DNA from: Eledone cirrhosa
Taxonomy: Eukaryota
Assembly: GCA_964016885.1 (NCBI GenBank)
Contig: OZ024742.1
Coordinates: 330,088,001 to 330,152,000, forward strand
Direction of reading: 5' to 3'
DNA length: 64,000 bases
Numbering within the stretch: position 1 is the stretch's first letter; each line of letters begins with the position of its first letter. The notes beneath the pieces are model-generated. The model had not been told where the DNA came from. It did no database searches and was given only the letters and a program-made list of their open reading frames with translations. Made by a program: the position numbers and the translations under genes. Of this stretch, positions 134 through 62,658 are shown piece after piece.

Positions 134-200
<67 letters not shown>
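134..200. repeat. (TA)n microsatellite, insertion site of PLEs
   Basis: Pure TA run directly visible; abuts the left arm of the PLE at 201. Confidence 0.95.
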
Positions 201-206
<6 letters not shown>

Positions 207-3534: not shown

Positions 3535-4523
3535 TATTCAATTCTTTATCAATTTAGAATCTTTTCTCAAAGGCACATATACATACACCTCTTTAAAATA
3601 TACCCATCTACCTTACTTTAAAGGGCATTATACACTCTATAATACTCGTTTACTCATTACCCTCATTCTATCTTCTCGTAAAATCATAGCATTTGTTTTT
3701 GTCATTTGAATATTCATCCGCAATCATTATTATTTTTTCTCTCTATCATAAATCTTTTTAATCTCAATTTCATCCTTAATTTATTATTATTTTTTTCTCC
3801 CCATCAACGAACTCATTATTAATACATATTAACTCTTTATTCGCACATATCATATACAAACTTTAACTTCACATTATTTTTCTCAAATCCTTCTACACAC
3901 AAACCTTAACAATTTTTCTCTTCGCTAATTTTGAAATTGCCACAATACATACATTTCTTCTTTTGACGTTAGAATATTCACCCACAATTATTATTTTTTT
4001 CTCTCTATCTTCATACATAATTTCCCTTCGTTAATTTTCAAATTCCTTTAATTTATACATTATCTTCCAACGGTTCCCAACCTCTCTATATTAAAACAAT
4101 ATATCTTTTTCTCAGTTATAAAAACTATCTCTTTCTCTCTATCACCCATCTCTCCCTCTCCACCTTCACTCTCATCTCCTCCCCCCTTTTTTTCATCCTT
4201 CCCCCCCCCCCCTCCCTAAATAAAATATTTTTCCTCGCACATATCCTCCCTTCGTTAATTTTCAAAATTTTTAATTTATACAGTATCTTCCAACGGTTTT
4301 CAACCTCTCTATGTAAAAAATATATCTCCTCTCAGTTATAAAAACTATCTCTTTCTCTCTATCACCCATCTCTCCCTCTCATCTCCTCCCCTTTCATCCT
4401 TTCCCCCCTCCCCCCTCTCTAAATAAAATATTTTTCCCAATATCACACATCAATCTAAAACCATTTTGCATATGTTGATTTAAAACTGCACTATCCACAA
4501 GTGTTTTTTAGCCTTCATATCAT

Positions 4524-4609
4524 GTTCTCCTGTTCTATCTGATGAAAACACAAATATTATTGCTTGATGATGTTTGTTTTTGAAATGCGCATAATAAAAT
4601 ATATGGAAC
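4524..4609 (+). ncRNA. Type I hammerhead ribozyme with intact core in the PLE 3' pLTR
   Basis: CTGATGA 4539-4545; stem II aaacacaaatattat/atgatgtttgttttt; GAAA 4582-4585; palindromic stem III ATGCGCAT; AUA cleavage after 4593; stem I tgttctat/ataaaata plus gttc/gaac. Confidence 0.85.
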
Positions 4610-4725
4610 TCCTTTAACCATCTTTTGATCTTATATTATGCATACTCCAGTCCCACAAACTGTAGAGTGCTTCTTATCCGATATCTGCATTGCTTTATTG
4701 TACTACAATAAAACTCACCTCCTAC

Positions 4726-20935: not shown

Positions 20936-21250
20936 TGGTTTTCATTGACTTTAGGAAGGCCTTTGACTCTGTGGACCGTTACTGCCTGATGAGGATCTTA
21001 CATGCCTATGGAATCCCTAAGAAGATAGTGGACTTGATATCACTGCTCTACACCAACACCAAAGCCCAAGTCATTACCCCTGATGGGATGACAGAGTTCT
21101 TTGAGATACTGGCTGGAGTGCTCCAGGGAGATACATTGGCTCCCTACCTTTTTATCATCATAGTGGACTATTGTATGCGCCTTGCACTGGAGAAACACCA
21201 GGACTCTGGCTTTACTGTAGCACCGGATCAGAGCAGGAGAGTTATGGTGT
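20933..21250 (+). mobile_element. RTE-clade LINE RT fragment
   Basis: VFIDFRKAFDSV, LHAYGIP, GVLQGDTLAPYLFIIIVDY; fused tail-to-tail with the PLE ORF at ~21251. Confidence 0.85.
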
Positions 21251-23136
21251 GCTAAAGAAGTAGAATTCTTAAACATAACATGTTTAAAATTAGAGATATG
21301 AGAATTAAACCTAGTCTTAAAAGTGTTAGATGTAGAGCCTATATACGTGCTATTAAAAGAATTAGTTTTAACCACACAAGCATAAACGATCTTCTTAGAG
21401 AGGCAGTTACCGTTTAAAGGGCAGTTAGCACTCACTCTACAGTTACACTTCCGTGTGTTATTGATCGGCTGAAGTAGTGATACATCGCACGTAGGATTAC
21501 TATGAGATAAAGTCTGCTCTGGTGGTAAGGCATTAACGGATCTATTCTGACTAGTAGCACGTAGAGAGGAGTATCCATCCCTAATTTTCCCATTGTTAGT
21601 GCTAGCTAAATGAGAACTAATATTAGGGGTGGTAGAGAATGAAAGTTTAATTACATTTTTATTAAAAATACTATGGTATTTATTAGTAGGAGGGAAGTTT
21701 TTCTCCAAGATAGAAAAGAATGACCTAGGGATGTTAGTTAATACTTCCTGATTATATGGCGGGTTAAAATAAGTATTTAGTCTCCTTGTATTTGTATCCT
21801 TACCAACTCTACCGTTATCTAATGTCCCATTATTAAGATTTGGGTTACTACAAGGATTAGTTAAAACCACATTAATAGAATCAGCCGAAACTCGATTAAG
21901 TCTCTTTCTCTTTCTACCTCTAGTATATGTGCCGCCATCTGGAGTCATATCAAAAGGATTAGGGCCAATAATAGGATCAGTAGATACAACATTATTAGAA
22001 TTAGGTATATCAAAAGTATTACCAATGGGTGAGCGCTCAGAGGGCTCGACTTGATTCCTAGAAGTATTAGATTCTCTGCTACGAGTCCGGTGGCTTAACC
22101 CATGGATGGGTTCAGATACACCTATGTGATTTCTACGATTCTTATGCTTTCTACTCCCATTCATGGCCATATTATGGGATATTATGTTATTATTATTATA
22201 AGTAAGCGGAGACATTCTAAGGTTACTCTTATTATAATGTATTTTACCAGAGTAACCTGAGTTAGCTAGGGCATTATTATAGTATTCTGCATGTGCATTA
22301 AATGTTCCTACGTCCTTAGAGAGTGTGGAAATCATATTAGATACACCATTAATTATAGAGCGTATCATAGCTTTGGGGTGGTTAGAATTTGGACTAACAT
22401 AAGAGAGTATTTCATTAGGCTTATGGAAGGGTTTAAAACTATTAGTGACCAAGTCCAAAGTCACATCTAAAAAGTTGACCGCTCTATCGTTTCTATCTGT
22501 CGTGATCGAAAGGTTATAGCTTTTAAAAAACTTATAAAGCTTCTTCTTATTATGTTCGACGTTGTTGGTGCTAGAGTTAATCACAAACAATGCATCGTCA
22601 CGATAAAGTCCGCCTTTAAGGTGCGGAAAGGTAACATATAGTTCATTTAAGAGGAACAACCCAACAAGATCAGTTACCTGGGCCGAATCACTCGAACCCA
22701 TTGTAACGTCGAAATTATTGGGCGTGTTTTTACGGGTCCAAAAAGTATCCTCAAAATTAATGATAGTTCTACGGGCTGCTAGTATAATATCTACCTGTGA
22801 TCGTGTAAGGCTGGACACTCTCATAGCCAACATTAAGGCTTTATTAAGGAGGATGGGTGAAATCGATGTGTAATAGGCTTCAATATCGAACTGGATAAAC
22901 TTACTAGATTCAAGTTTATTAATACCAGAGAACCAATCTATAACCTCCTTAGTGTTCCTCCAAAGGTTAAAATTAACCTTCTCCCTAACATCTGGTATAA
23001 TAAGGTCAAAGATTTGTTTTACTAATTATGGCTATATCAGACTTAGAAGGACAGATGAGTCTAACAGAGGGATTACTAATGAAGTCTACCTTATGATCCT
23101 TAAGAGTGAATCTCGGTTCTCTATAGTATTTCAATT

Positions 23137-41808: not shown

Positions 41809-41850
<42 letters not shown>

Positions 41851-42091
41851 TGTCTTTATTAACCACAAGGGTTTACATAAAGTAGACATTAAGGACAGTG
41901 CAGGGCAATACAGGACGGTACAAATGGGCATTTCTGCGTGTAAAAAAACAGAGGATGTAATAATATAACAAAGAAAAATTCCCCAATAGGGGGGAGACTT
42001 CCTAGGGACATTTGTGGAGAAATCCCATTAAAAGACCACAGTGAAAATGACCACCGGGGCAAGTGCCCTCTCCCAGTTTTCCACCTTTAAT

Positions 42092-45000
42092 TTACAGACA
42101 CATACTCAGAGAAGGCCCAATCATTCGGGCCATACTTGCTTCTCTCACCCATCTTTCAACAAAATGCTGGGAAGAGAGCACTTCCCTCTCTTCCCTGATT
42201 TTCCTTTTCAAATGAAATTTGAAAAAGTTAATCAGGGCATCACCGAAGAGGTAAGTGCTCGTCTTCAGCCCTTTCAAACGTGTCCACCATACTATCTCTT
42301 TCGCCATGGCCACCAGACAGATAAAAACTTCCTGCTCTTCCCGGCTAAAGGAAGAGGGCGGGGCAATCCTCACGATGGACTCAGTTGATAGCCGGATCCG
42401 TCCTACACGTGACAGCAGGTGTTCGACATAAACCCACAAGTCAGCAATGCTCGGACACTGGACGAGTGCGTGCAGGACGGTTTCGTCGCCCTGTGTGCAC
42501 CTCGGACATGCCCGGCTGACGGCACCTCCATGCTTGTAGAGTTTATCCCGAACTGGCAAAGCTCCCCGGTAGCACTGCCAGGCCAGGGATTTCTGGAAGT
42601 TGTCCATAAGCCCCGGCCCGAAAGTCCTTCCGAAGAGATTGGCTAGTTGATTTTCGTCGACGCCTAGAGTTTCTCCAAGTACGTTGTCGCTCTTCCCCTC
42701 CACGAATCCCCTATAGAACGCCAAGGTGGAGTTTCCACCGATCACATTGCCCGATTGGTCGAGGGCTGTGAGCGCCTGACGACATTCCAGTCTCCATGCG
42801 CTCCCTCTCGGTCTTCGCTTGACCCAGGACTGCAGCTCCGTCAAGGAGACGAGCTGGGGGGAAAAACGTGTCTAGCAAACGGCGACCACACCTTATCACC
42901 GTCGAGGAAGAGTAGTAGATGTCGTAGCCTGAGCGCGTGTCTGCGCATCATCAGCCACGGCACGCCCAGCCCTCCACGTAGCGGGTGTTGACAGCAGATG
43001 GACCGCCTGACCATCGGAGCGCGTCCCTTCCACAAGAAGCGAAAGAGCAAACGCTCCAGCGCAGTCAGGCGGGGCTTAGGACAAGGTACGACGGTCAGGC
43101 GGTAGTAGATGACGGACGCGATGTACGCGTTAGCCACCTCCGCTCGACCTTTCAGGGATAGCTTCCTCTCGGCCCATTTCTGGGTGAGAGAAGCCACCCT
43201 GCTCGTCACCTCGTCCCAGTTTTTGTCCGTCTGGAGGTCTGGACCGAACCAGACCCCAAGCAATTTAACCGGTCCGTCCGTCCAGCGCGCGACGACGCTG
43301 TTGGACGGCATGGACCTGCCTCTCCAGGTGCCGAGCTGCAGGCCCACTGACTTTTCCTGGTTGATCATTGCTCCTGTCACCGCTTCGTATACTCTTAGTG
43401 TAGTGCTGATCGCCTCGATGTGTTTGGCGTTCGACACCACTACGGTGACATCGTCCGCATATTCTGACACGGATCTTCCGCGTCATAGTTCGCGCGGCAC
43501 CCCCTCAACGTCTCCAGTTTGTGCAGCAATGGCTCGAGAATCAATACGTACAATAGGGACGAGAGGGGACATACTTGGCGGACCGAGCGCATGATGTTGA
43601 ACGATTCCGAAAGGTGACCGTTCACTCTCACTACAGATCAGATGTCGCTGTGCATGGCAGCGATCCAGCCTCTGAAGACGGGCCCAAAGCCAGCCGCCCT
43701 CAGGACTGCCGCTAGGTAACGATGGTCGACCCTATCGAAGGCTTTCGACTGATCTAAATTGATCAAAGACCCACACGTGCCAGGTTCCCTAGCTACCCTC
43801 TCTACGATGTATCGCATGAGGTGGATATTGTCGTGGATGGATCTGTCGGGAATGGCGCGTGTCTGTGCCTCTCCCACCAGACCACCAACGACATGCGCCA
43901 ACCTCTTTGCTAGCACCTTGGCCAAAATCTTGATCTCTGTGTTTAGCAGAGTTATGGGCCTAAAATTATCTATGTTATCCCACTTGTTCGAATCCTTTCT
44001 CAGCAGCTCCACCGCCCCTCGGCTCACAGAGCTGGGAACTCTCCCGTGTTGTTGCCAGTTGCAGTATACGTCCGCCAAGAGGCCTCCGAACAAGTCTGGC
44101 ATTTGTACGTAAAGTTCATAGGGCAGACCATCCAAACCAGGCGATTTACCCCTTGTGCAGCCAGTCATTACCTCCCGCACTTCAGCGTTTGTTATCGGCT
44201 TTTCGCAACACTCCGCCTCAGTGGCCGAAAGCCGCGGCAGTCCGTCGAGGTAGACACTAAAGTCCATCCCTCCATCCGGCGCGCCAACGCCCCCGAACAG
44301 TTGAGCGAAGTGTCGCTGAAAAGCTTCACACATTTGCCCGGGATCGAGTAGCATGCGCCCGTCGTGGTCCACCAAAGACCGGATCGTGGCTTTGTTGCCA
44401 CGACGCGCCTCCGCCACTCGGGCCCATTGAACGGCTTTCGTCCCCGCGTGTCTGAGAGCACGCACCCTAGCTCTGACAACGCAGCCTTCGTGCTTTACAT
44501 TGAAGGATTGGTCAAGGGCCAATTTCGCCGCAAGTACGTCGGTCGCGATGCCTTTGCTAAGCGCCTCTTCTAATTTTTTAACTAATTCTCCCTCTGCTCT
44601 ATTTTTCTCTATTGCTAAAGCCTTACTAAACCTAATGGACTCTATTCTAATTGCTCTTTTCAGAGCAAACCACCACTTGTTTGTTGACGATGGCCCCCGT
44701 CAACGCCCGCTTAACTAGTTCGCTAATCCGGTCTCTGTAGGCCTTGCGCGCTGGTAAGGACGCGTTTAGCTTCCAGTAGCCGGGTCCTCGTCTATTAAGC
44801 CTATCTAAGTCAAGCACACAGATCACGAATTTGTGGTCCGTGTAGCTGACTATCTTGAATTGTGGACAGCCTATGCTAGACCTATCTATTTCCCTACAAA
44901 ATACTCTATCTAGATATGATCTGGATGACCCTATGCGATTTGTCCAAGTCCACATTGGTACGTTCGGGAAATCCATTCGGTACCTGTCAAACAGTTCAAA

Positions 45001-45514
45001 ACGCCTGAGCACGTTGTGGAGACTCTTGAACCCTCCTTCCCTATCCACTAATCCCACACAATCCCAGCGTGCATCTAAGATCCCGTTCCAGTCGCCCACT
45101 AACACTAAAGAGCGGGACATTTCCAAGAAAGGTCTCCAGACGCCGGAAGAAATCAGGCCGCCCTGCTCCTGTCGGGGCATAGACGGCCACTAGCCTGAAA
45201 GCTTGCCCGTCTCCACTGGTCACGTCTAGCACCACCAACTTACCTTCTGGGTCCAGGAAGATGGCCCGTATGGCGAGATCCAAACCTTTCCGCAAAAGCA
45301 CAGCGACTGCTTCCCCCGATCCCGGACGGCTGGGAAATGGGTACAAATCTTAGCCGCCGAAGATCGGTGCGAAGGCCCTTGTTTCGGAGATTCTGGTCAC
45401 GCTGATTTCCACTACATCTATGTTTAGTGACCTGAGGTCGTTGAGCAGGTGACCTTGCTTCCATGACGACCCCAAGACACGCGCATTTATGCTGCCTATT
45501 CTGAGTGAGGTCAT
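42092..45514 (-). pseudogene. Copy A ORF2 (APE endonuclease-RT-zinc finger), multiple frameshifts
   Basis: Pieces 44647-45180, 43638-44522, 42841-43470 and 42092-42844 align to copy B/C ORF2 (GDWN, YTDH, KSPGLDG, YADD, CPRC..H..C). Confidence 0.92.
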
Positions 45515-45552
45515 GTTGAAATGGGGTGTAAAAGATGGGAAAGACCACTTAC
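45501..45552 (-). other. Candidate 52-nt intron spanning the ORF1 stop and ORF2 start (copy A)
   Basis: AG|GTAAGT donor overlaps the TAA stop; pyrimidine-rich interior; CTCAG| acceptor in ORF2 codon 5; splicing would give GTA-AGA-ATA in frame. Confidence 0.35.
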
Positions 45553-47502
45553 CTTACTTCTCGTAGAGGAAGAATGGTTTGTCCATCCTTTTCACTGCTT
45601 GTGGCCTCCTCTGGAAGGATGTCTTTATAAATCCTCCTGGAGAGTGTTTGTCGGAAGTCTCCGATGTCTTTGGAGAATTTTTGTTTTAGTGTCGTGTACG
45701 TTTTCTGTGTGATGCGAGTGATTTGTATGTGTGGAGGTGGTGTGAACTTTTGGGTTGTTGTGTAGTCTTTTTCTGTGATGCTGGTGTTGTGTTGCATGTA
45801 GTGTAATAATTGATTGTTGTTCAAATTTAATGCTGTATGGTGTGTATCGTTTTGGTTGTTTTGTATTGTTTGCGTTTGTTGTGGGTTTGTTTCTGTTATG
45901 CTTTTTGGTGTTGTTTGTGGTGTTGGTGATGGTTGTGTTGGAGTTAATGTTGGTGATTGTGTTGGTGTTTGTGGTGATGGGGTTCGTGATGCTGGTGTGG
46001 ATGGTGGCATATCTGTCTTAACTTTCTTGTTCGATAATTTATTTGTTTCCCTCTGTATTTTGTTTTTTGAGGGGGAAGGAAGAGATTTTTTTTCTTTTTT
46101 GGTTTCTTTTTTCCTGATACCGTTTCCCATTCCTCGTCGTCATAATCTGTCTCCAGTTGCTATAAGCCGGGGAGTGGAAAATCCTCCACAGGCGTTGGTT
46201 TTTGTTGTGGCGTGGTGGATGGTGTAGGCGCTGGTGCTAGTTCTGTGGCGTTGGGTGGTGGTGGTGTTGGTTTTGCTACTGTTGCTGGGGTTGTAGCTGT
46301 TACAGTTGCTACTGTTGTTGCTGCCACAGTTGTTGCGGCTTTTTCTGCTGCTGGTGGTGTTGATGGTTGAGTCATTCGGGTGGGTAAGAGAGGTGTCCTC
46401 AACCTTTTAGTCTGAGGGCAGAAAGCCCTTAGGTGGGTTCCTTCACCACAAACGACACACCTAGGTCTTCTGCCCTCGACGATTACGGTGAGGTGGTTGC
46501 CGTCAGTGAGGTCTATTACTCCTGGGATCTCCTCAATGCTTTTATGGTCCGCTTGGATCAGGAGCTCCATCCCAGATCCGGACCAGTTCTCCTGCTTTTC
46601 TTTTGCTATTTCTATTATTTTGTTGTTGGCCTCGATGCCGGTGAGGACGGCAGTCATTAGCCAGGGAATTTCGATGGCCGGTGGAACGTGGGTCACTCTG
46701 ATCTTCACAAGTCTCTGGCCACAATAGCTTGGGATGAGTGTGAAGTCGTCACTTCTTAATGGGGCCATGTAGTGTTCTCTGGCCTCCTGTGGTGTTTCAA
46801 AGAACACGTCCACGGTTCCATACTTCTACCCACGTCTGATGTGGGTTTTTTTTGCCCACACATGTCCCAAAGCTTTTGGGATTTGGGACTCAGATGCCCG
46901 TTCTACTCGGCGCGATTTTATGTTTATTGTCCGATGAGACACGGTGCATAGGCGACGTTGCTCCATTTTTTTAGGGTAGGGGGTGGGGTGAGACTGACCC
47001 TGTACCCATCTTTCTTTACCATTCCTTTGGCTTCGTCTAATTCTTCCTGAGATACCTGTATCGCTTCGCACGTTTTTGCTACTCTGGCAAAACTCAGGGT
47101 AGTTTTCTTAATTTCATTGTTGCTGTTGTTATTATCGTTATTTTTGCTATTGTTAATTTTAGTTTCAGTTGTGGTGGTGGTGGCGTCAGTGGTGTTCGGT
47201 CTGGAAGAGTTCATTTTGGTTGAATTCATTTCGATATCATGAGTTAATTTATTTTTTTCTTTTGTTTCTGTTGTCGCTCTGGTGGTGGTGGGGGTGGGGG
47301 TTGTCGCGGTGGTGGTGGTGGTGGTCGCGGCTTTAACACCTGCAGTCATTGGTAATGGCGGGAAATGAACGTCTGCCTGAGACAAATTAAAAATATTGCT
47401 ACTGCTTACAATTCCAGTGTTGGCAAACATAGCAATGTTTACAATGGTGATGTCGGTGTGAGGTGTTGGATTGTGAGGAAGGAGTGAATCTGTGTCATCC
47501 AT
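45549..47502 (-). pseudogene. Copy A ORF1 (gag-like), frameshifted
   Basis: LSFARVAK..EEL.EAK.MV.K.G, DVFFETPQEA, PSYCGQ, CVVCGEGTHLRAFC knuckle, T/P-rich linker, KF..DIGDFR. Confidence 0.85.
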
Positions 47503-47770
47503 TATTTTTCAAAGAAAACAATTTTTGCTTGATAATTATAAAAATTTTACATTTTGGGCTCAAGGCCCCAATATTTTTGACTGTCCTTTTCAGAAATCAA
47601 TGTATGTGCACTTATATATAGTTAACAATAAAAATTTTCCATAAATGGCAATTTTAAATAACTGAAAATAACAAACCTTTGCGGAGCTCACGATGATACG
47701 ATTTACTACGTAGGTCGCCAATAATAATAATAATAATAATAATATTAATAATAATAATAATAATAATAAT

Positions 47771-48154
47771 GCTTTCTTTATTAACCACAAGGATTTACAT
47801 AAAGTAGACATCAAGGACAGTACAGGACAATACAGGACGGTACAAATGGGCATTTCTGCGTGTAAAAAAACAGCGGATGTAATAAAAAATAACAATGACA
47901 ACATTCCCCAATAGGGGGAGACTTCCGAGGGACATTTGTGGAGAAAGCCCATTAAAAGACCACAGTGACCACGACCACTAGGGCAAGTGCCCTCTCCAAG
48001 TTTTTGACCTTTAATTTACAGACACATACTTAGAATCATACTTGCTTCTCTCACCCATCTTTCAACAAAATGCCGGGAAGAGAGCACTTCCCTCTCTACC
48101 CTGATTTTCCTTTTCAAATGAAATATGAAAAAGTTAATCAGGGCATCACCGAAG
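47771..48154 (-). mobile_element. Tx1 copy D, 5'-truncated 3' end
   Basis: Matches 41849-42250 (3' UTR and last ORF2 codons); (AAT)n on both sides. Confidence 0.92.
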
Positions 48155-48176
48155 ATAATAATAATAATAATAATAA

Positions 48177-50474: not shown

Positions 50475-50533
<59 letters not shown>

Positions 50534-50792
50534 TTTCTTTATTAACCACAAGGGTTTACATAAAGTAGACATTAAGGACAGTGCAGGACAATGCAGGACG
50601 GTACAAATGGGCATTTCTGCGTGTAAAAAACAAAAACAGAGGATGTAACAAAAATAACAATGAAAATAACAATGAAAAATTCCCCAATAGGGGGGAGACT
50701 TCGGAGGGACATTTGTGGAGAAAGCCCAGTAAAAAGCCACAATGACCCTGACCACCAAGGCAAGTGCCCTCTCCCAGTTTTCCACCTTTAGA

Positions 50793-53700
50793 TTACAGAT
50801 ATATACTCAGAGTCGGCCCATTCACTCGGGCCATTCTTGCTTCTCTCACCCATCTTTCAACAAAATGCTGGGAAGAGAGCACTTCCCTCTCTACTCTGAT
50901 TTTCCTTTTCAAATGAAATTTGAAAAAGTCAATCAGAGCATCACCGAAGAGGTAACTGCTCGTCTTCAGCCCTTTCAAACGTGTCCACCATACTATCTCT
51001 CTCGCCATGGCCACCAGACAGATAAAAACTGCCTGCCCTTCCCGGCTAAAGGAGGAGGGCGGGGCAATCCTCACGATAGACTCAGATGATAGCTGGATCC
51101 GTCCTAAACGCGACAGCAGGTGTTCGACATAAACCCACAAGTCAGCAATTTTCGGACACTGGACGAGTGCGTGCAGGACGGTTTCGTCGCCCTGCGCGCA
51201 TCTCGGACATGCCCGGCTGACGGCACCTCCATGCCTGTAGAGTTTATCCCGAACTGGCAAGGCTCCTCGGTAGCACTGCCAGGCCAGAGATTTCTGGAAG
51301 TTGTCCATAGGCCCTGGCCCGAAAGTTCTTCCGAAGAGATTGGCTAGTTGATTTTCGTCGACGCCTAGAGTTTCCCCAAGTACGTCGTCGCTCTTCCCCT
51401 CCACTAATTCTCTATAGAACGCCGAGGTGGAGTTTCCACCGATCACATTGCCCGATTGGTCGAGGGCTGTGAGCGCCTGAAGACATTCCAGTCTCCAGGC
51501 GCTCCCTCTCGGTCTTCGCTTGACCCAGGACTGCAGCTCCGTCAAGGAAACGAGCTGGGGAAAAACGCGTCTAGCAAACGGCGACCACACCTGATCACCG
51601 TCGAGGAAGAGGTGGAGATGTCGTAGCCTGAGCGCGTGCCTGCGCATCATCAGCCACGGCATGCCCAGCCCTCCACGTAGCGGGTGTTGACAACAGATGG
51701 ACCGCCTGACCATCGGAGCACGTCCCTTCCACAAAAAGCGAAAGAGCAAACGCTCCAGCGCAGTCAGGCGAGGCTTAGGACAAGGTACGACGGTTAGGCG
51801 GTAGCAGATGACAGACGCGATGTACGCGTTAGCCACCTCCGCTCGACCTTTCAGGGATAGCTTCCTCTCCGCCCATTTCTGGGTGAGAGAAGCCACCCTG
51901 CTCGTCACCTCGTCCCAGTTTTTGTCCGTCTGGAGGTCCGGACCGAACCAGACCCCTAGCAATTTAACCGGTCCGTCCGTCCAGCGCCCGACGACGCTGT
52001 TGGACGGCATGGACCTGCCTCTCCAGGTGCCGAGCTGCAGGCCCACTGACTTTTCCTGGTTGATCATTGCTCCTGTCACCGCTTCGTATTCTCTTAGTGT
52101 AGTGCCGATCGCCTCGATGTGTTTGGCGTTCGACACCACTACGGTGACATCGTCCGCATATGCTGACACGGATCTTCCGCATCCTAGTTCGCGCGGGACT
52201 CCCCTCAACGTCTCCAGTTTGTGCAGTAATGGCTCGAGAGTCAATACGTACAAGAGGGACGAGAGGGGACATCCTTGGCGGACCGAGCGCATGATGTTGA
52301 ACGGTTCCGACAGGTGACCGTTCACTCTCACTACAGAGCAGATGTCGCTGTGCATGGCAGCGATCCAGCCTCTGAAGACGGGCCCAAAGCCAGCCGCCCT
52401 CAGGACTGCCGCTAGGTAACGATGGTCGACCCTATCGAAAGCTTTCGACTGATCTAAATTGATCAAGGACCCACCCGTGCCAGGTTCCCTAGCTACCCTC
52501 TCTACGATGTATCGCATGAGGTGGAGGTTGTCGTGGATGGATCTGTCGGGAATGGCGCATGTCTGCGCCTCTCCCACCAGACCACCAACGACAAGCGCCA
52601 ACCTCTTTGCTAGCACCTTGGCCAAAATCTTAAACTCTGTGTTTAGCAGAGTTATGGGCCGGAAATTGTCTATGTTATCCCCCTTGTTCGGATCCTTTCT
52701 CAGCAGTGCCACCGCTCCTCGGCTCACAGAACTGGGAATTCTCCCGTTCTGTTGCCAGTTGCAGTAGACGTCCGCCAAGAGGCCTCCGAACAAGTCTGGC
52801 ATCTGTACGTAAAGTTCATAGGGCAGACCATCCAAACCAGGCGATTTACCCCTTGTGCAGCCAGTCATTGCCTCCCGTACTTCAGCGGCTGTTATCGGCT
52901 TTTCGCAACACTTCGCCTCAGTGGCCGAGAGCCGCGGCAGTCCGTCGAGGTAGACACTAAAGTCCATCCCTCTACCCGGCCCCCCGCTGCCCCCGAACAG
53001 CTGAGCGAAGTGTCGCTGAAAAGCTTCACACATTTTCCCGGGATCGAGTAGCATGCGCCCGTCGTGGTCCACCAAAGACCGGATCGTGGCTCTGTTGCCA
53101 CGACGCGCCTCCGCCACTCGGGCCCATTGAACGGCTTTCGTCCCCTCGTGTCTGAGAGCACGCACCCTAGCTCTGACAACGCAGCCTTCGTGCTTTGCAT
53201 TGAAGAATTGGTCAAGGGCCAATTTCGCCGCAAGCACGTCGGTCGCAATGCCTTTGCTAAGCGCCTCGTCTAATTTTCTAACTAGTTCTCCCTCTGCTCT
53301 ATTTTTCTCTATTGCTAAAGCCTTACTAAAGCTAATCGATTCTATTCTAATCGCTCTTTTCAGAGCAAACCACCACTTGTTGTTGACGATGGCCCCCGTC
53401 AACGCCCGCTTAACTAGTTCGCTAATCCGTCTCTGTAGGCCTTGCGCGCTGGTAAGGACGCGTTTAGCTTCCAGTAGCCGGGTCCTCGTCTATGAAGCCT
53501 ATCTAAGTCAAGCACACAGGTCACGAATTTGTGGTCCGTGTAGCTGACTATCTTGAATTGTGGACAGCCTATGCTAGACCTATCTATTTCCCTACAAAAT
53601 ACTCTATCTAGATATGATCTGGATGACCCTATGCGGTTTGTCCAAGTCCACATTGGCACATTCGGGAAATCCAATCGGTACCTGTCAGACAGTTCAAAAC

Positions 53701-54211
53701 GCCTGAGCAGGTTGGTGAGGCTCTTGCACCCTCCACCCCTATCCGCTAATCCCACACAGTCCCAGCGTGCATCTAAGATGCCGTTCCAGTCGCCCACTAA
53801 CACTAAAGAGCGGGACGTTCCAAGAAAGGTCTCCAGACGCCGGAAGAAATCAGGCCGCCCTGCTCCTGTCGGGGCATAGACGGCCACTAGCCTGAAAGCT
53901 TGCCCGTCTCCGCTGGTCACGTCCAGCACCACCAGCTTACCCTCTGGGTCCAGGAAGATGGCCCGTATGGCGAGATCCAAACCTCTCCGAAAAAGCACAG
54001 CAACTCCTCCACCCGATCCAGGACGGCTGGGAGATGCGTACACATCGTAGCCGCCGAAGATCGGTGCGAAGGCCCGTGCTTCGGAGATTCTGGTCTCGCT
54101 GATGGCCACTACATCTATGTTTAGTGACCTGAGGTCGTTGAGCAGGTGACCCTGCTTCCATGACGACCCCAAGCCACGCGCATTTATGCTGCCTATTCTG
54201 AGTGAGGTCAT
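50793..54211 (-). CDS. Copy B ORF2 APE-RT-zf with a single frameshift near 53428
   Basis: 265 aa EN part (GSINARG, SETR, GDWN, YLDR, YTDH) plus 869 aa RT part (QGCPLS, YADD, CPRCAQGDETVLHALVQC); lacks one G present in copies A and C (aatccg vs aatccgg). Confidence 0.9.
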
Positions 54212-54250
54212 GTTTAAAATAGAGTGGAAAAGATGGGAAAGACCACTTAC
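54198..54250 (-). other. Candidate 53-nt intron spanning the ORF1 stop and ORF2 start (copy B)
   Basis: CG|GTAAGT...CTCAG|A, which would give an in-frame CGA codon. Confidence 0.35.
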
Positions 54251-56344
54251 CGTACTTTTGGTAGAGGAGGGGTGGTTTTTACTTCCCTTTTCACTTGATC
54301 GTCTGGTGAAGGGACCGTTGAATCGTCCCTTCGGCTGGTCGTCGGCTCTTCTAAGAGAATGTCTGAATATACTCTTCGATTGATGGTTCCTCCTAGGTCC
54401 CTGAAATCACCAACTGCGTTGGGGAATTTCGTTTTAATGTTTGTGTATTGTTTCTGTGCTATTTTTAGCAGTCTTATGTTAGTTGGCGTTTTGATTGGTG
54501 CTGGTATTATGTAGTCCTGTTGTGAAATGTCTGTGTGTTCAATTATGTAAGTCATTAGTTTCTTGTTGTGTGTGTTTATTGCCGTGCATTTGTTTTTCTG
54601 GGGGTGGGGTGTGGTTCTGCTATTTTCTTGTCGTTGTTGCTGGGTGTGTGTGTTTTGTTGTTGTGTTTGCGATGTTGGTGCTTGTGGTGGTGGTGTTGAA
54701 GGTGTTGTTGGCGGTGGGGTTGTCGCCGGTGGTGATGGTGGTGCTGGTGTGGGTGGTGATGGTGTTGGTGGTGTTGCTGCTGTGGGTCTCTTTGCAGTAG
54801 ACTTTACCCTTTTCTCATTTCTTTCCTCCCTTTTCAAAGGCGACGATGCGCTGCTTCTGCGTTTGTGCCTTCTTGCGACCTTTTGCCATCCCTCTCCCAC
54901 CTCACACTCCATGTCTGATTCTGTGAGGTCGGGGAGGGGTACCAGCTCCACTCTTTCACTTGTTGTTGTTGGTGATGTTTGCACTGGAGTCTCTGTTGCA
55001 GCTGCATTTGGTATTGCTGTTGTTGTTGTTAATATTTCCACTGCTGCTGCTGTTTTTGATTTCCGTGGCGTGGGTATGGGTGCCACGGACCTATCGTTCC
55101 TGGTTGCCGCTTGTCCTGTTGCTGGTAGCCGTGGAGCCGGATTCGGAAGGAGGGGGGTTTTCTCCTTCCTCAGGGTCTTCTCGTTGCAGAAGGCCCTGAG
55201 GTGAGTCTTCGATCCACAGCGAAAGCATTTCGGGCGTTTGCCCTCAACACTTATGGGCAGTTGAGTGCCGTTATCGAAGTCTATCACATCCGGGATAGCT
55301 TCGATGCACTCCTGGTTGGTTTGGATTAGCATCTCAATGGAGGAGCCGACCCAATCTTCTCTTACTTTTTTCTGTACTTGCAGTACAGTTGTTTTGTCCT
55401 CGATTCCGACGAGGACAGACGCGGCCAGCCAAGAAGGGGTCATTCCGGGGGGGACGTGGGTCAGTTTGACCCTCACAATTTTTTGCCCGCAGTAGGAGGG
55501 CACCAACACCATTTCCTCGCTCCTTAGGGTCACTACTGATTGGGCCTTTGCCTCCTGGGGTGTGGCAAAAAGTACGTCTACGGTGGCATATTTTTTGCCT
55601 CGGGTGATGTGCGTTTTCTCGCTGCCACACAGACCCCAAGGCTTTTTGTATTTGGGCCTCTGTGGCTCTTTCCACCCTACGGGATTTTGTACTTACTGTA
55701 CGGTACGTGACCGTACAGTGCTCTTGGGTCTCGAAAAACTTTTCCGCTGCCTTGCAGATTGCTCGGTGTCCGTTCTTTGTCACCATCTTCTTCGCTTCCT
55801 CTAATTCCTCATTTGTTATGAGGATTGTTTCCAAGTTTTTCGCAATACCTGCAAATGAGATTGGTTTTTCTCTGCTGTTGTTGTTGTCGTCAGAGCTGCT
55901 GGTACTTTTGTTGTTGCTGCAGGTACTACGACTACTGCCTCCGCCGCTGTTGCTGTGGTTGTTGTTGGTGTTGCTGCTGCTAATGCTGTTGTTGTTTATG
56001 TTGCTGGTGATGCTGTTGCAGCTGCTACTGTTGTTTTCATTGTCACTGTTGCTGTTGTTATTACGGCTGCTACTGCTATTATTCCTGACGTCAGACGAAT
56101 GAACTGGGTTTTCGTATTTCCCGCACACCTGTTTCGTCGCTGTCGTCGTCGTCGTGGAGAAACTTTGCACGCTTTGCACGAGACTTTTCTTTTCTTTCGT
56201 CACTTGCGAAAGAGAAGGGAGGGAGAGAGACACATTTAAAGAAGGGAGGGAGAGAGACAATCTTCTCTCTGCTGTAGTGATGATTGAGGAAGAAGAAGAC
56301 GGAATGAGTGGGAGTGACGTATGAAATTTCTTTTTTGTAGCCAT
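54247..56344 (-). CDS. Copy B ORF1 with a single frameshift near 55619
   Basis: ORFs 55334-56344 and 54247-55533 join to match the 694 aa ORF1 of copy C; CFRCGSKTHLRAFC. Confidence 0.88.
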
Positions 56345-56559
56345 GTTGTTTTTTGTTTAAAATGAAATTTTGGGTACAAAACCCCAATAACTGGTTATTT
56401 AACCCCGAAGGGCCAAATAACGGACAGAAAGACCCCTCTCACGAGGAGGAGGGTGTCTTTATCAACAATTTGGTTCAAGTTTTAAACAATTTACAATTGT
56501 TTTAACGGTTAAAAATTACTATACCTTACAGAGCCGAGCCTCCGTCAACCATGGCATTC

Positions 56560-56600
<41 letters not shown>

Positions 56601-56861
56601 TTTCTTTATTAACCACAAGGGTTTACATAAAGTAGACATTAAGGACAGTGCAGGACAATGCAGGACGGTACAAATGGGCATTTCTGCGTGTAAAAAAAAC
56701 AAAAACAGAGGATGTAACAAAAATAACAATGAAAATAACAATGAAAAATTCCCCAATAGGGGGGAGACTTCGGAGGGACATTTGTGGAGAAAGCCCAGTA
56801 AAAAGCCACAATGACCCTGACCACCAAGGCAAGTGCCCTCTCCCAGTTTTCCACCTTTAGT

Positions 56862-59800
56862 TTACAGATATATACTCAGAGTCGGCCCATTCACTCGGGC
56901 CATTCTTGCTTCTCTCACCCATCTTTCAACAAAATGCTGGGAAGAGAGCACTTCCTTCTCTACTCTGATTTTCCTTTTCAAATGAAATTTGAAAAAGTCA
57001 ATCAGAGCATCACCGAAGAGGTAAGTGCTCGTCTTCAGCCCTTTCAAACGTGTCCACCATACTATCTCTTTCGCCATGGCCACCAGACAGATAAAAACTG
57101 CCTGCCCTTCCCGGCTAAATGAGGAGGGCGGGGCAATCCTCACGATAGACTCAGATGATAGCTGGATCCGTCCTAAACGCGACAGCAGGTGTTCGACATA
57201 AACCCACAAGTCAGCAATTTTCGGACACTGGACGAGTGCGTGCAGGACGGTTTCGTCGCCCTGCGCGCATCTCGGACATGCCCGGCTGACGGCACCTCCA
57301 TGCCTGTAGAGTTTATCCCGAACTGGCAAGGCTCCTCGGTAGCACTGCCAGGCCAGAGATTTCTGGAAGTTGTCCATAGGCCCTGGCCCGAAAGTTCTTC
57401 CGAAGAGATTGGCTAGTTGATTTTCGTCGACGCCTAGAGTTTCCCCAAGTACGTCGTCGCTCTTCCCTTCCACTAATCCTCTATAGAACGCCGAGGTGGA
57501 GTTTCCACCGATCACATTGCCCGATTGGTCGAGGGCTGTGAGCGCCTGAAGACATTCCAGTCTCCAGGCGCTCCCTCTCGGTCTTCGCTTGACCCAGGAC
57601 TGCAGCTCCGTCAAGGAAACGAGCTGGGGAAAAACGCGTCTAGCAAACGGCGACCACACCTGATCACCGTCGAGGAAGAGGTGGAGATGTCGTAGCCTGA
57701 GCGCGTGCCTGCGCATCATCAGCCACGGCATGCCCAGCCCTCCACGTAGCGGGTGTTGACAACAGATGGACCGCCTGACCATCGGAGCACGTCCCTTCCA
57801 CAAAAAGCGAAAGAGCAAACGCTCCAGCGCAGTCAGGCGAGGCTTAGGACAAGGTACGACGGTTAGGCGGTAGCAGATGACAGACGCGATGTACGCGTTA
57901 GCCACCTCCGCTCGACCTTTCAGGGATAGCTTCCTCTCCGCCCATTTCTGGGTGAGAGAAGCCACCCTGCTCGTCACCTCGTCCCAGTTTTTGTCCGTCT
58001 GGAGGTCCGGACCGAACCAGACCCCTAGCAATTTAACCGGTCCGTCCGTCCAGCGCCCGACGACGCTGTTGGACGGCATGGACCTGCCTCTCCAGGTGCC
58101 GAGCTGCAGGCCCACTGACTTTTCCTGGTTGATCATTGCTCCTGTCACCGCTTCGTATTCTCTTAGTGTAGTGCCGATCGCCTCGATGTGTTTGGCGTTC
58201 GACACCACTACGGTGACATCGTCCGCATATGCTGACACGGATCTTCCGCATCCTAGTTCGCGCGGGACTCCCCTCAACGTCTCCAGTTTGTGCAGTAATG
58301 GCTCGAGAGTCAATACGTACAAGAGGGACGAGAGGGGACATCCTTGGCGGACCGAGCGCATGATGTTGAACGGTTCCGACAGGTGACCGTTCACTCTCAC
58401 CACAGAGCAGATGTCGCTGTGCATGGCAGCGATCCAGCCTCTGAAGACGGGCCCAAAGCCAGCCGCCCTCAGGACTGCCGCTAGGTAACGATGGTCGACC
58501 CTATCGAAAGCTTTCGACTGATCTAAATTGATCAAGGACCCACCCGTGCCAGGTTCCCTAGCTACCCTCTCTACGATGTATCGCATGAGGTGGAGGTTGT
58601 CGTGGATGGATCTGTCGGGAATGGCGCATGTCTGCGCCTCTCCCACCAGACCACCAACGACAAGCGCCAACCTCTTTGCTAGCACCTTGGCCAAAATCTT
58701 AAACTCTGTGTTTAGCAGAGTTATGGGCCGGAAATTGTCTATGTTATCCCCCTTGTTCGGATCCTTTCTCAGCAGTGCCACCGCTCCTCGGCTCACAGAA
58801 CTGGGAATTCTCCCGTTCTGTTGCCAGTTGCAGTAGACGTCCGCCAAGAGGCCTCCGAACAAGTCTGGCATCTGTACGTAAAGTTCATAGGGCAGACCAT
58901 CCAAACCAGGCGATTTACCCCTTGTGCAGCCAGTCATTGCCTCCCGTACTTCAGCGGCTGTTATCGGCTTTTCGCAACACCTCGCCTCAGTGGCCGAGAG
59001 CCGCGGCAGCCCGTCGAGGTAGACACTAAAGTCCATCCCTCTACCCGGCCCCCCGCTGCCCCCGAACAGCTGAGCGAAGTGTCGCTGAAAAGCTTCACAC
59101 ATTTGCCCGGGATCGAGTAGCATGCGCCCGTCGTGGTCCACCAAAGACCGGATCGTGGCTTTGTTGCCACGACGCGCCTCCGCCACTCGGGCCCATTGAA
59201 CGGCTTTCGTCCCCTCGTGTCTGAGAGCACGCACCCTAGCTCTGACAACGCAGCCTTCGTGCTTTGCATTGAAGAATTGGTCAAGGGCCAATTTCGCCGC
59301 AAGCACGTCGGTCGCAATGCCTTTGCTAAGCGCCTCGTCTAATTTTCTAACTAGTTCTCCCTCTGCTCTATTTTTCTCTATTGCTAAAGCCTTACTAAAC
59401 CTAATCGATTCTATTCTAATCGCTCTTTTCAGAGCAAACCACCACTTGTTGTTGACGATGGCCCCCGTCAACGCCCGCTTAACTAGTTCGCTAATCCGGT
59501 CTCTGTAGGCCTTGCGCGCTGGTAAGGACGTTTAGCTTCCAGTAGCCGGGTCCTCGTCTATGAAGCCTATCTAAGTCAAGCACACAGGTCACGAATTTGT
59601 GGTCCGTGTAGCTGACTATCTTGAATTGTGGACAGCCTATGCTAGACCTATCTATTTCCCTACAAAATACTCTATCTAGATATGATCTGGATGACCCTAT
59701 GCGGTTTGTCCAAGTCCACATTGGCACATTCGGGAAATCCAATCGGTACCTGTCAGACAGTTCAAAACGCCTGAGCAGGTTGGTGAGGCTCTTGCACCCT

Positions 59801-60279
59801 CCACCCCTATCCGCTAATCCCACACAGTCCCAGCGTGCATCTAAGATCCCGTTCCAGTCGCCCACTAACACTAAAGAGCGGGACGTTCCAAGAAAGGTCT
59901 CCAGACGCCGGAAGAAATCAGGCCGCCCTGCTCCTGTCGGGGCATAGACGGCCACTAGCCTGAAAGATTGCCCGTCTCCGCTGGTCACGTCCAGCACCAC
60001 CAGCTTACCCTCTGGGTCCAGGAAGATGGCCCGTATGGCGAGATCCAAACCTCTCCGAAAAAGTACAGCAACTCCTCCACCGGATCCAGGACGGCTGGGA
60101 GATGCGTACACATCGTAGCCGCCGAAGATCGGTGCGAAGGCCCGTGCTTCGGAGATTCTGGTCTCGCTGATGGCCACTACATCTATGTTTAGTGACCTGA
60201 GGTCGTTGAGCAGGTGACCCTGCTTCCATGACGACCCCAAGCCACGCGCATTTATGCTGCCTATTCTGAGTGAGGTCAT
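56862..60279 (-). CDS. Copy C ORF2 APE-RT-zf with a frameshift near 59530
   Basis: 262 aa + 869 aa pieces; ggacgtttag versus ggacgcgtttag in copies A and B. Confidence 0.9.
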
Positions 60280-60318
60280 GTTTAAAATAGAGTGGAAAAG
60301 ATGGGAAAGACCACTTAC
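60266..60318 (-). other. Candidate 53-nt intron spanning the ORF1 stop and ORF2 start (copy C)
   Basis: Same CG|GTAAGT...CTCAG|A arrangement as copy B. Confidence 0.35.
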
Positions 60319-62399
60319 CGTATTTTTGGTAGAGGAGGGATGGTTTTTACATCCCTTTTCACTTGATCGTCTGGTGAAGGGACCGTTGAATCGTCCCTTC
60401 GGCTGGTCGTCGGCTCTTCTAAGAGAATGTCTGAATATACTCTTCGATTAATGGTTCCTCCTAGGTCCCTGAAATCACCAACTGCGTTGGGGAATTTCGT
60501 TTTAATGTTTGTGTATTGTTTCTGTGCTATTTTTAGCAGTCTTATGTTAGTTGGCGTTTTGATTGGTGCTGGTATTATGTAGTCCTGTTGTGAAATGTCT
60601 GTGTGTTCAATTATGTAAGTCATTAGTTTCTTGTTGTGTGTGTTTATTGCCGTGCATTTGTTTTTCTGGGGGTGGGGTGTGGTTCTGCTATTTTCTTGTC
60701 GCTGTTGCTGGGTGTGTGTGTTTTGTTGTTGTGTTTGCGATGTTGGTGCTTGTGGTGTTGAAGGTGTTGTTGGCGGTGGGGTTGTCGCCGGTGGTGATGG
60801 TGGTGCTGGTGTGGGTGGTGATGGTGTTGGTGGTGTTGCTGCTGTGGGTCTCTTTGCAGTAGACTTTACCCTTTTCTCATTTCTTTCCTCCCTTTTCAAA
60901 GGCGACGATGCGCTGCTTCTGCGTTTGTGCCTTCTTGAGACCTTTTGCCATCCCTCTCCCACCTCACACTCCATGTCTGATTCTGTAAGGTCGGGGAGGG
61001 GTACCAGCTCCACTCTTTCACTTGTTGTTGTTGGTGATGTTTGCACTGGAGTCTCTGTTGCAGCTGCATTTGGTATTGCTGTTGTTGTTGTTAATATTTC
61101 CACTGCTGCTGCTGTCTTTGATTTCCGTGGAGTGGGTATGGGTGCCACGGACCTATCGTTCCTGGTTGCCGCTTGTCCTGTTGCTGGTAGCCGTGGAACC
61201 GGATTCGGGAGGAGGGGGGTTTTCTCCTTTCTCAGGGTCTTCTCGTTGCAGAAGGCCCTGAGGTGAGTCTTCGATCCACAGCGAAAGCATTTCGGGCGTT
61301 TGCCCTCAACACTTATGGGCAGTTGAGTGCCGTTATCGAAGTCTATCACATCCGGGATAGCTTCGATGCACTCCTGGTTGGTTTGGATTAGCATCTCAAT
61401 GGAGGAGCCGACCCAATCTTCTCTTACTTTTTTCTGTACTTGCAGTACAGTTGTTTTGTCCTCGATTCCGACGAGGACAGACGCGGCCAGCCAAGAAGGG
61501 GTCATTCCGGGGGGGACGTGGGTCAGTTTGACCCTCACAATTTTTTGCCCACAGTAGGAGGGCACCAACACCATTTCCTCGCTCCTTAGGGTCACTACTG
61601 ATTGGGCCTTTGCCTCCTGGGGTGTGGCAAAAAGTACGTCTACGGTGGCATATTTTTTGCCTCGGGTGATGTGCGTTTTCCGCTGCCACACAGACCCCAA
61701 GGCTTTTTGTATTTGGGCCTCTGTGGCTCTTTCCACCCTACGGGATTTTGTACTTACTGTACGGTACGTGACCGTACAGTGCTCTTGGGTTTCGAAAAAA
61801 TTTTTCGCTGCCTTGCAGATTGCTCGGTGTCCGTTCTTTGTCACCATCTTCTTCGCTTCCTCTAATTCCTCATTTGTTATGAGGATTGTTTCCAAGTTTT
61901 TCGCAATACCTGCAAATGAGATTGGTTTTTCTCTGCTGTTGTTGTCGTCAGAGCTGCTGGTACTTTTGTTGTTGCTGCAGGTACTACGACTACTGCCTCC
62001 GCCGCTGTTGCTGTGGTTGTTGTTGGTGTTGCTGCTGCTAATGCTGTTGTTGTTTATGCTGCTGGTGATGCTGTTGCGGCTGCTACTGTTGTTTTCATTG
62101 TCACTGTTGCTGTTGTTATTACGGCTGCTACTGCTATTATTCCTGACGTCAGACGAATGAACTGGGTTTTCGTATTTCCCGCACACCTGTTTCGTCGCTG
62201 TCGTCGTCGTGGAGAAACCTTGCACGCTTTGCACGAGACTTTTCTTTTCTTTCGTCACTTGCGAAAGAGAAGGGAGGGAGAGAGACACATTTAAAGAAGG
62301 GAGGGAGAGAGACAATCTTCTCTCTGCTGTAGTGATGATTGAGGAAGAAGAAGACGGAATGAGTGGGAGTGACGTATGAAATTTCTTTTTCGTAGCCAT
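60315..62399 (-). CDS. Tx1 ORF1 nucleic-acid-binding protein, 694 aa
   Basis: Uninterrupted ORF; S/N-rich N-terminus, globular middle, CX2CX4HX4C knuckle, P/T-rich linker, basic patch, C-terminal domain shared with copy A. Confidence 0.9.
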   Translation of the reverse strand: MATKKKFHTSLPLIPSSSSSIITTAERRLSLSLPSLNVSLSLPSLSQVTKEKKSLVQSVQGFSTTTTATKQVCGKYENPVHSSDVRNNSSSSRNNNSNSDNENNSSSRNSITSSINNNSISSSNTNNNHSNSGGGSSRSTCSNNKSTSSSDDNNSREKPISFAGIAKNLETILITNEELEEAKKMVTKNGHRAICKAAKNFFETQEHCTVTYRTVSTKSRRVERATEAQIQKALGSVWQRKTHITRGKKYATVDVLFATPQEAKAQSVVTLRSEEMVLVPSYCGQKIVRVKLTHVPPGMTPSWLAASVLVGIEDKTTVLQVQKKVREDWVGSSIEMLIQTNQECIEAIPDVIDFDNGTQLPISVEGKRPKCFRCGSKTHLRAFCNEKTLRKEKTPLLPNPVPRLPATGQAATRNDRSVAPIPTPRKSKTAAAVEILTTTTAIPNAAATETPVQTSPTTTSERVELVPLPDLTESDMECEVGEGWQKVSRRHKRRSSASSPLKREERNEKRVKSTAKRPTAATPPTPSPPTPAPPSPPATTPPPTTPSTPQAPTSQTQQQNTHTQQQRQENSRTTPHPQKNKCTAINTHNKKLMTYIIEHTDISQQDYIIPAPIKTPTNIRLLKIAQKQYTNIKTKFPNAVGDFRDLGGTINRRVYSDILLEEPTTSRRDDSTVPSPDDQVKRDVKTIPPLPKIR

Positions 62400-62614
62400 G
62401 TTGTTTTTTGTTTAAAATGAAATTTTGGGTACAAAACCCCAATAACTGGTTATTTAACCCCGAAGGGCCAAATAACAGACAGAAAGACCCCTCTCACGAG
62501 GAGGAGGGTGTCTTTATCAACAATTTGGTTCAAGTTTTAAACAATTTACAATTGTTTTAACGGTTAAAAATTACTATACCTTACAGAGCCGAGCCTCCGT
62601 CAACCATGGCATTC

Positions 62615-62658
<44 letters not shown>
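62615..62658. repeat. (AAT)n spacer, one of seven (41367-41404, 41809-41848, 47720-47770, 48155-48176, 50475-50531, 56560-56598, 62615-62658)
   Basis: Directly visible at every element junction in the stack. Confidence 0.95.

Follow-up and report, generated by a model that had tools for sequence, protein, structure and literature searches.

The ORF1-ORF2 junction of a LINE family in the Eledone cirrhosa genome carries a U1-type 5' splice donor set over the ORF1 stop codon, and this donor is a genuine conserved feature of a LINE junction that is ordinary in other respects. Of 24 lineage representatives, which cover three deep clades and two reading phases, 23 retain the motif G|GTA(A/G)GT. An earlier note on this DNA had proposed that the donor is joined to a nearby acceptor, so that a mini-intron is removed and ORF1 and ORF2 are fused. 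No such junction was observed in the RNA run used and no exact-loss copy in the family, the AG or the frame is lost in relatives, and the proposed fusion can be dropped. We tentatively suggest that the site is used in a manner resembling that of the Arabidopsis element EVD, likely allowing a minority message that encodes ORF1 alone.

The LINE copies and their ORF1-ORF2 junction

Three near-full-length copies of an L1/Tx1-type LINE lie on the minus strand of the window, the 64-kb stretch of DNA that was analysed: copy A at about 41809-47700, copy B at 50493-56600 and copy C, a 6,016-nt element, at 56560-62656. B and C are arranged head to tail around a common (ATT)n tract, the AATAAA and (ATT)n tail of copy C (56560..56610) being shared with the head of copy B. 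All features of copy C described below are likewise on the minus strand. Its ORF1 (60315..62399) encodes 694 aa with a CCHC zinc knuckle and low-complexity N/S and P/T stretches, and ends in ...PKIR-TAA. The donor G|GTAAGT (60313..60319; cut site 60319|60318) overlies this stop, and an inter-ORF spacer of 35 nt (60280..60314), CU-rich from about 60310 to 60284, separates it from ORF2 (56862..60279). The ORF2 ATG (60277..60279) lies within the proposed intron and opens the N-terminus M-T-S-L-R-I-G-S-I-N-A-R-G-L, in which codons Leu4-Arg5 contain the proposed acceptor CTCAG (60266..60270), itself part of a predicted long-range stem. Pfam searches identified an N-terminal AP-type endonuclease (PF03372), a reverse transcriptase (RT; PF00078) and a C-terminal zf-RVT zinc finger (PF13966) in ORF2. 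The frame is shifted near 59500 in copy C, and open ORF2 frames of 1,152-1,204 aa are present in other genomic copies.

The CCHC zinc knuckle in an upstream ORF1 and the simple-repeat tail are present and LTRs are absent. On this architecture, on the general features of such elements and on the octopod account in PMC13282606, we call the element an L1/Tx1-type LINE. The available text of that paper describes 13 recently active L1-Tx1 families in Octopus vulgaris, and our family resembles them in its zinc-knuckle ORF1, its endonuclease-RT-zinc-finger ORF2, its microsatellite tail and its thousands of young copies. Unlike in our account, the words 'intron' and 'splice' do not occur in the main text of PMC13282606, where a donor at the ORF1 stop is not described. 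The nearest named protein matches were from Argonauta hians, at 56-69% identity, in keeping with an octopod host. All 40 of the scored genomic matches to the junction of copy C were 100% identical, and the LINE family is thus both young and large. The ORF2 N-terminus MTSLRIGSINARGL matches full-length relatives of about 40% identity, such as MDLRLASINARGL. An ORF2 with its own ATG after a short spacer is the ordinary two-gene LINE layout. Human L1, in the accessible parts of PMC5860796 and PMC5972666, likewise has two ORFs, a short spacer (63 nt, as against 34-35 nt in our family) and an ORF2 with its own AUG, the protein being thought to arise by reinitiation (PMC5972666).

Over 6,112 nt, B and C share 99.1% identity; A matches C at 94% over the part that begins some 45 nt 5' of the donor and runs to the 3' end. 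Judged from the alignment, ORF1 has been swapped between subfamilies near the junction, since the likeness of A and C stops about 45 nt upstream of the donor. The ORF1s of A (45549-47508) and C (60315-62399) are very different, and their ORF2s are 94% identical. Small deletions, different in C (59491-59531) and B (53414-53489), fall within about 30 nt of one and the same point in ORF2, just past the endonuclease, and the head of copy A (47720-48155) holds a short, 5'-truncated 3' end of the same family at 85-89% identity. Head-to-tail arrays with a period near 6.06 kb and a shared (ATT)n were observed at 50493-62656 and also at G000:C2:110322047-110352752 and G000:C1:441102074-441138744; the pattern suggests that the tail of an older copy serves as the insertion site for a new one.

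Elsewhere in the window, a plus-strand ORF of 651 aa (1579-3534) is situated between 1,458-bp inverted repeats of 99% identity (199-1654 and 3183-4639). In its protein an RT-like YRDD motif is accompanied by a tail that resembles GIY-YIG; no Pfam family matched, and the unit at 199-4639 looks like a Penelope-like element. A similar ORF lies on the minus strand at 21040-23025.

Conservation of the donor

In order to compare junctions between lineages, all of which come from one genome, 3,808 further copies from other subfamilies were found with a degenerate endonuclease-start pattern, and 8 of 214 loci were left out for want of an anchor. The lineage representatives fall into three well-supported clades, between which the endonuclease DNA is 57-79% identical. 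Seven matches considered as candidate outgroups (L258-L264) contained no LINE junction. A metagenome scan returned 33 loci of 22-29% identity, except for one short piece at 37%, none of them close and none with a donor at an ORF1 stop, and a viral scan found no relatives. Microsatellite tails differ between the clades, being of TCTA-, TCTG- or TA-type in clade I (L278-L289, L301, L303, L309-L312) and ATT in clades II and III, which suggests a switch of target repeat.

The 24th representative, L212, is an old, 5'-truncated copy that has neither donor nor spacer. It was left out of the 23-row donor table, in which L218 stands in place of L216. Positions -1, +1, +2, +3 and +6 of the donor are invariant in all 23 rows; a purine (A or G) stands at +4, and 22 rows have G at +5. 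The flanks of the donor vary freely, and only 3 of 20 four-fold endonuclease sites are equally fixed. In the whole of copy C, G-GTA(A/G)GT is found at one place only, which is precisely the ORF1 stop. Across lineages the donor survives a change of reading phase, swaps between TAA and TAG, and replacement of the ORF1 tail and spacer. The spacer is 68-81% pyrimidine in the 21 measurable rows and is surrounded by an A-rich context; the ORF2 start which follows reads CCAACATGG in most lineages, a strong start context.

We read this pattern as a sign that a U1-type site is under selection at the level of the RNA. Since splicing as a rule harms LINEs, a near-perfect donor that is kept over deep divergence and in two phases implies a benefit. 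In the literature searched, which lay mostly outside subscription journals, no account of a conserved donor at a LINE ORF1 stop was found.

The proposed mini-intron

As had been reported, the ORF1 TAA of copies A, B and C is overlapped by G|GTAAGT, after which come a stretch rich in pyrimidines and, in codon 5 of ORF2 (M-T-S-L-R), CTCAG|A. The stretch between them is 52 nt in A (45501..45552, attached to a different ORF1 type) and 53 nt in B (54198..54250) and C, and its excision on paper gives the in-frame product (V/I)R-IGSINAR. A consensus donor with a YAG acceptor is thus present in the window copies, at the level of sequence only. The three copies do not amount to three independent cases or to meaningfully different spacers: B and C are 99.1% identical and A 94%, and the typical A-type and C-type spacers are two substitutions and one indel apart. 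Nor do lengths of 52 and 53 nt with a kept frame argue for splicing. The difference is no test of frame because the entire stretch would be removed, and the in-frame join is one ancestral event with a chance of about one in three.

Comparison among lineages separated the two halves of the proposed junction: the donor exceeds chance across the lineages aligned here and the acceptor is not conserved, the AG being lost or the frame broken in subfamilies. A YAG at the near acceptor was observed in the window's clade (III) only, with AAG or GAG in clades I and II; in L210, L211 and L251 the AG is absent and the Arg codon is Gln. The homologous GT-to-AG distance is 39 nt at its shortest and 66 nt at its longest. 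Clade II has its donor in phase 1 of ORF1, the phase whose knuckle-bearing frames are 406 and 470 aa long; no phase-2 frame in the 30 copies is longer than 76 aa. The window's family has close sisters in L208 and L265, which keep CTCAG and also have a phase-1 donor. Phase 1 holds for L296 and L297 as well. A near join would read Glu-stop in clade II, L208 and L265, and is in frame on paper in the window's family and clade I. The pyrimidine tract starts about nine bases past the donor, so that there is no room for a branch point before it, an argument which draws on established intron anatomy. The conservation of CTCAG may be accounted for by its being part of the predicted stem and of the Leu-Arg codons. 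Two other routes from ORF1 to ORF2 were considered and rejected: stop-codon readthrough, as only some of the lineages have an in-frame spacer, and leader trans-splicing, as most spacers have no AG before the ATG.

L1-type proteins favour their own encoding RNA, according to the accessible text of PMC5860796; if ORF2 were made from spliced RNA, new copies without the intron would therefore be expected. Intact and shortened junctions were counted by two-motif genome searches, in which the counts are not fully independent owing to tandem copies. Exact loss of the 53 nt was found in 0 of 3,610 copies of the window's family (3,608 intact and 2 imprecise deletions that keep the acceptor), and 0 of 261 copies of the distant L106 family were shortened. 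In clade II, 4 of 1,197 copies were shortened, three by imprecise deletion and one, L275 (G000:C3:46207654-46207685), by loss of exactly the homologous 53 nt between donor and AG. L275 has AAG at both ends of the lost stretch and is truncated about 700 nt into ORF2; its ORF2 ATG is gone and its product reads Glu-Glu-stop. A random deletion would hit the same ends in about 3-4 of 620 ways, before any microhomology bias. A search for the second exon after sequence other than the intron gave four matches, three of them single-base losses in CAG and the fourth L066 (G000:C28:29392374), in which about 600 nt of ORF1 and spacer are missing and a site within ORF1 is joined to CTCAG one base off a GT-AG cut. 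L275 may be either a rare spliced dead-end copy or a repair deletion, and it is no support for fusion; with the near-GT-AG join of L066 it may show rare use of the acceptor. Rare spliced copies of human L1, the SpIREs, are dead ends in the parts of PMC5860796 and PMC5972666 available to us, as L275 and L066 may be.

None of the listed sequencing runs was catalogued as RNA, and a host ferritin gene was used as a control to set the type of four of them. Run X3 joins ferritin exons over GT-AG introns of 1,174 and 2,730 nt (depth 58.6), the only host introns whose lengths were observed here, and is thereby shown to be RNA; run X1 covers the ferritin introns evenly and is shown to be DNA. X4 and X6 gave contigs over the junction with the ferritin exons uncovered, and were left out. 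An intron-less, ferritin-like ORF of 173 aa was noted at L097 (G000:C11:42354473-42354889), the other ferritin genes here having introns. An X3 contig of 1,412 nt (depth 77.7) reads through the donor without splicing and extends 66 bases into the proposed intron, and a second X3 contig of another variant runs unspliced across the acceptor. No joint at 60265-60319 was present among the joints listed for X3, a single run whose contigs drop rare forms. The X3 contig also shows no break at the donor that would mark an ORF1-only RNA, contigs being insensitive to minor RNAs. Some of the X3 signal may be passive transcription from thousands of copies.

Candidate far acceptors and the possible role of the donor

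To look for acceptors at the far end of ORF2, 40 fetched stretches were analysed together with copies A and C; L316, which lacks the ORF2 end, and L307 and L315, which lack the anchor, were left out. Among 39 related ends, 35 have TAG as the ORF2 stop and 29 have TAG-G; in most relatives this stop thus resembles a splice acceptor. In the window's family it is TAA, so that an acceptor at the ORF2 stop is missing there. Joined at the ORF2 stop, ORF1 would run into a stop codon no more than four codons on in all 10 clade II copies, in the phase-1 sisters L208 and L265 and in 8 of 18 clade I copies, often with its own end rebuilt exactly; this early stop fails in the other 10 of the 18 and in the L123 type. 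The phase-1 stop is present also in lineages with a phase-2 donor (the L210 and L123 types), and may be inherited rather than matched to the donor. For the window's family the best candidate, and an uncertain one, is a U-rich tract in the 3' UTR ending in ACGCAG|A (56684..56720 in copy C, 3,635 nt from the donor), identified from its sequence. With a join there, ORF1 would gain 19 residues followed by a stop in each of A, B and C; this ACGCAG is confined to the window's family and the L123 type, and the added tail has no conserved stop.

The ORF2 start is predicted to pair with the ORF2 3' end (56862..56896 in copy C). The pairing test omitted 4 of the 39 ends, on account of a frameshifted end, a deleted or missing ATG, or a shortened end. 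In 29 of 35 copies the pairing of the start with its own stop region exceeds its mean with the others, and in 14 of 35 the pairing ranks first of about 700 windows. The stem is weak or absent in L285, L296 and the L210 type (none at all), and in copy C it ranks 31st of 732; clade I starts pair equally well with clade II ends and with their own. On the side of the stem, L294, a recombinant whose 5' part is of clade II and whose 3' end is of clade III, pairs poorly.

Starting from what was observed, namely the anatomy, the donor conservation, the failure of the near acceptor and the absence of fused copies, we favour, as a tentative reading, that the U1 site at the ORF1 stop is used in the manner of EVD and likely allows a minority ORF1-only message. 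The conserved donor would bind U1 snRNP and, in a minority of transcripts, would be spliced to an acceptor at or beyond the ORF2 stop, not to the CTCAG 53 bases off, the predicted stem bringing donor and far acceptor side by side. Full-length unspliced RNA would be the template copied into the genome, and ORF2 protein would be made from it by reinitiation at the ORF2 ATG, by analogy with L1 and SART1. The ORF1-only message would supply extra RNA-binding protein and, having no ORF2 in cis, would leave few genomic copies. ORF1-only genomic copies were not found: none for the three candidate far acceptors in the window's family, none in the L106 family and none in clade II. Their absence is expected if such RNA has no ORF2 in cis, and lends the reading no support. 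A search for the donor followed by unrelated sequence gave nine matches, all of them small indels, with a pattern blind to the three far acceptors.

As described in the accessible part of PMC5580714, the Arabidopsis Ty1/copia element EVD, with its short-GAG RNA, has a conserved U1-type donor at the end of its structural gene, and U1 both permits an RNA for the structural protein only and protects the full-length RNA, which is the major form. The likeness extends to an acceptor that matters less than the donor, to RNA that is mostly unspliced and full-length, and to the structural-protein-only message proposed here. EVD is an LTR element with one polyprotein, in which the GAG stop arises through the splice, itself tied to early termination; unlike EVD, ORF1 here already has a stop, the part skipped would be all of ORF2 (3.4-3.6 kb), and spliced RNA was not seen in X3. 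The splice sites of human L1, in the portions of PMC5860796 and PMC5972666 available, lie in the 5' UTR and ORF1 and hinder mobility, whereas here the donor is fixed at the ORF1 stop in lineages up to about 40% diverged.

A different role for the same site, which we consider rather unlikely, is that U1 binds the donor without splicing and shields a long intron-less RNA from early cleavage and polyadenylation, the CU tract binding PTB-type proteins, blocking nonsense-mediated decay and aiding reinitiation at the ORF2 ATG. The donor is conserved and no single acceptor is kept in all clades, neither spliced RNA (in X3) nor a spliced genomic copy was found, and the tract is strongly pyrimidine-rich within its A-rich context, all of which would fit. 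Precedents are available: U1 blocks premature termination of full-length EVD RNA (PMC5580714, in the part accessible), and in RSV, from what could be seen of PMC4764554, PTBP1 bound just past the gag stop blocks UPF1. The RSV RNA stability element resembles the LINE junction in being CU-rich directly past the first ORF stop of an unspliced two-gene RNA, and differs in its 400 nt with many PTBP1 sites, the LINE tract being 20-45 nt long with putative binding. Against this role, the TAG-G bias at the ORF2 stop and the in-phase stops of clade II are left unexplained, and the only internal poly(A)-like hexamers in copy C, two in number, precede the donor. It may act together with the ORF1-only splicing that we favour. 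The suggestion that splicing or U1 binding matters at this junction is supported for U1, by the deep conservation of the donor alone, and abandoned for splicing over 53 nt.

It is improbable, in our view, that the donor motif is a by-product of ancestry and of other constraints (the last codon, stop context or RNA structure) with no spliceosomal role. All copies descend from one ancestor, the stop codon makes up 3 of the 7 motif positions in phase-2 lineages, some four-fold sites (the 3 of 20) are also nearly invariant, and no splicing was seen in X3. However, the motif outlasts the phase change, TAA/TAG swaps that leave the donor consensus intact and the complete replacement of ORF1 tail and spacer; positions +5 and +6 lie outside the coding sequence in clade I and most of clade III, and -1 and +1 never vary. 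Removal of a 52-53-nt intron to make ORF2 as an ORF1-ORF2 fusion protein is largely refuted, and we find it scarcely credible: its on-paper frame in the window's family and clade I stands against the lack of exact losses, an AG lost or frame broken in sister lineages, homologous lengths down to 39 nt, an ORF2 that keeps its own ATG and the absence of this junction from the joints listed for X3.

The ORF1-only reading that we favour has a more specific form, possible though doubtful, in which this group of LINEs keeps its RT gene inside a facultative spliceosomal intron, with a U1 site in the ORF1 stop, an acceptor in or just after the ORF2 stop and a co-varying stem that loops out the 3.4 kb between them. 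For LINEs the demand for ORF1 protein far exceeds that for ORF2 protein, and even in human L1 the way in which a two-gene RNA meets it has been worked out only in part. If the facultative intron is real, the ratio of ORF1 to ORF2 protein would be set by splicing, a device known from copia-type LTR elements and not found for LINEs in the literature searched.
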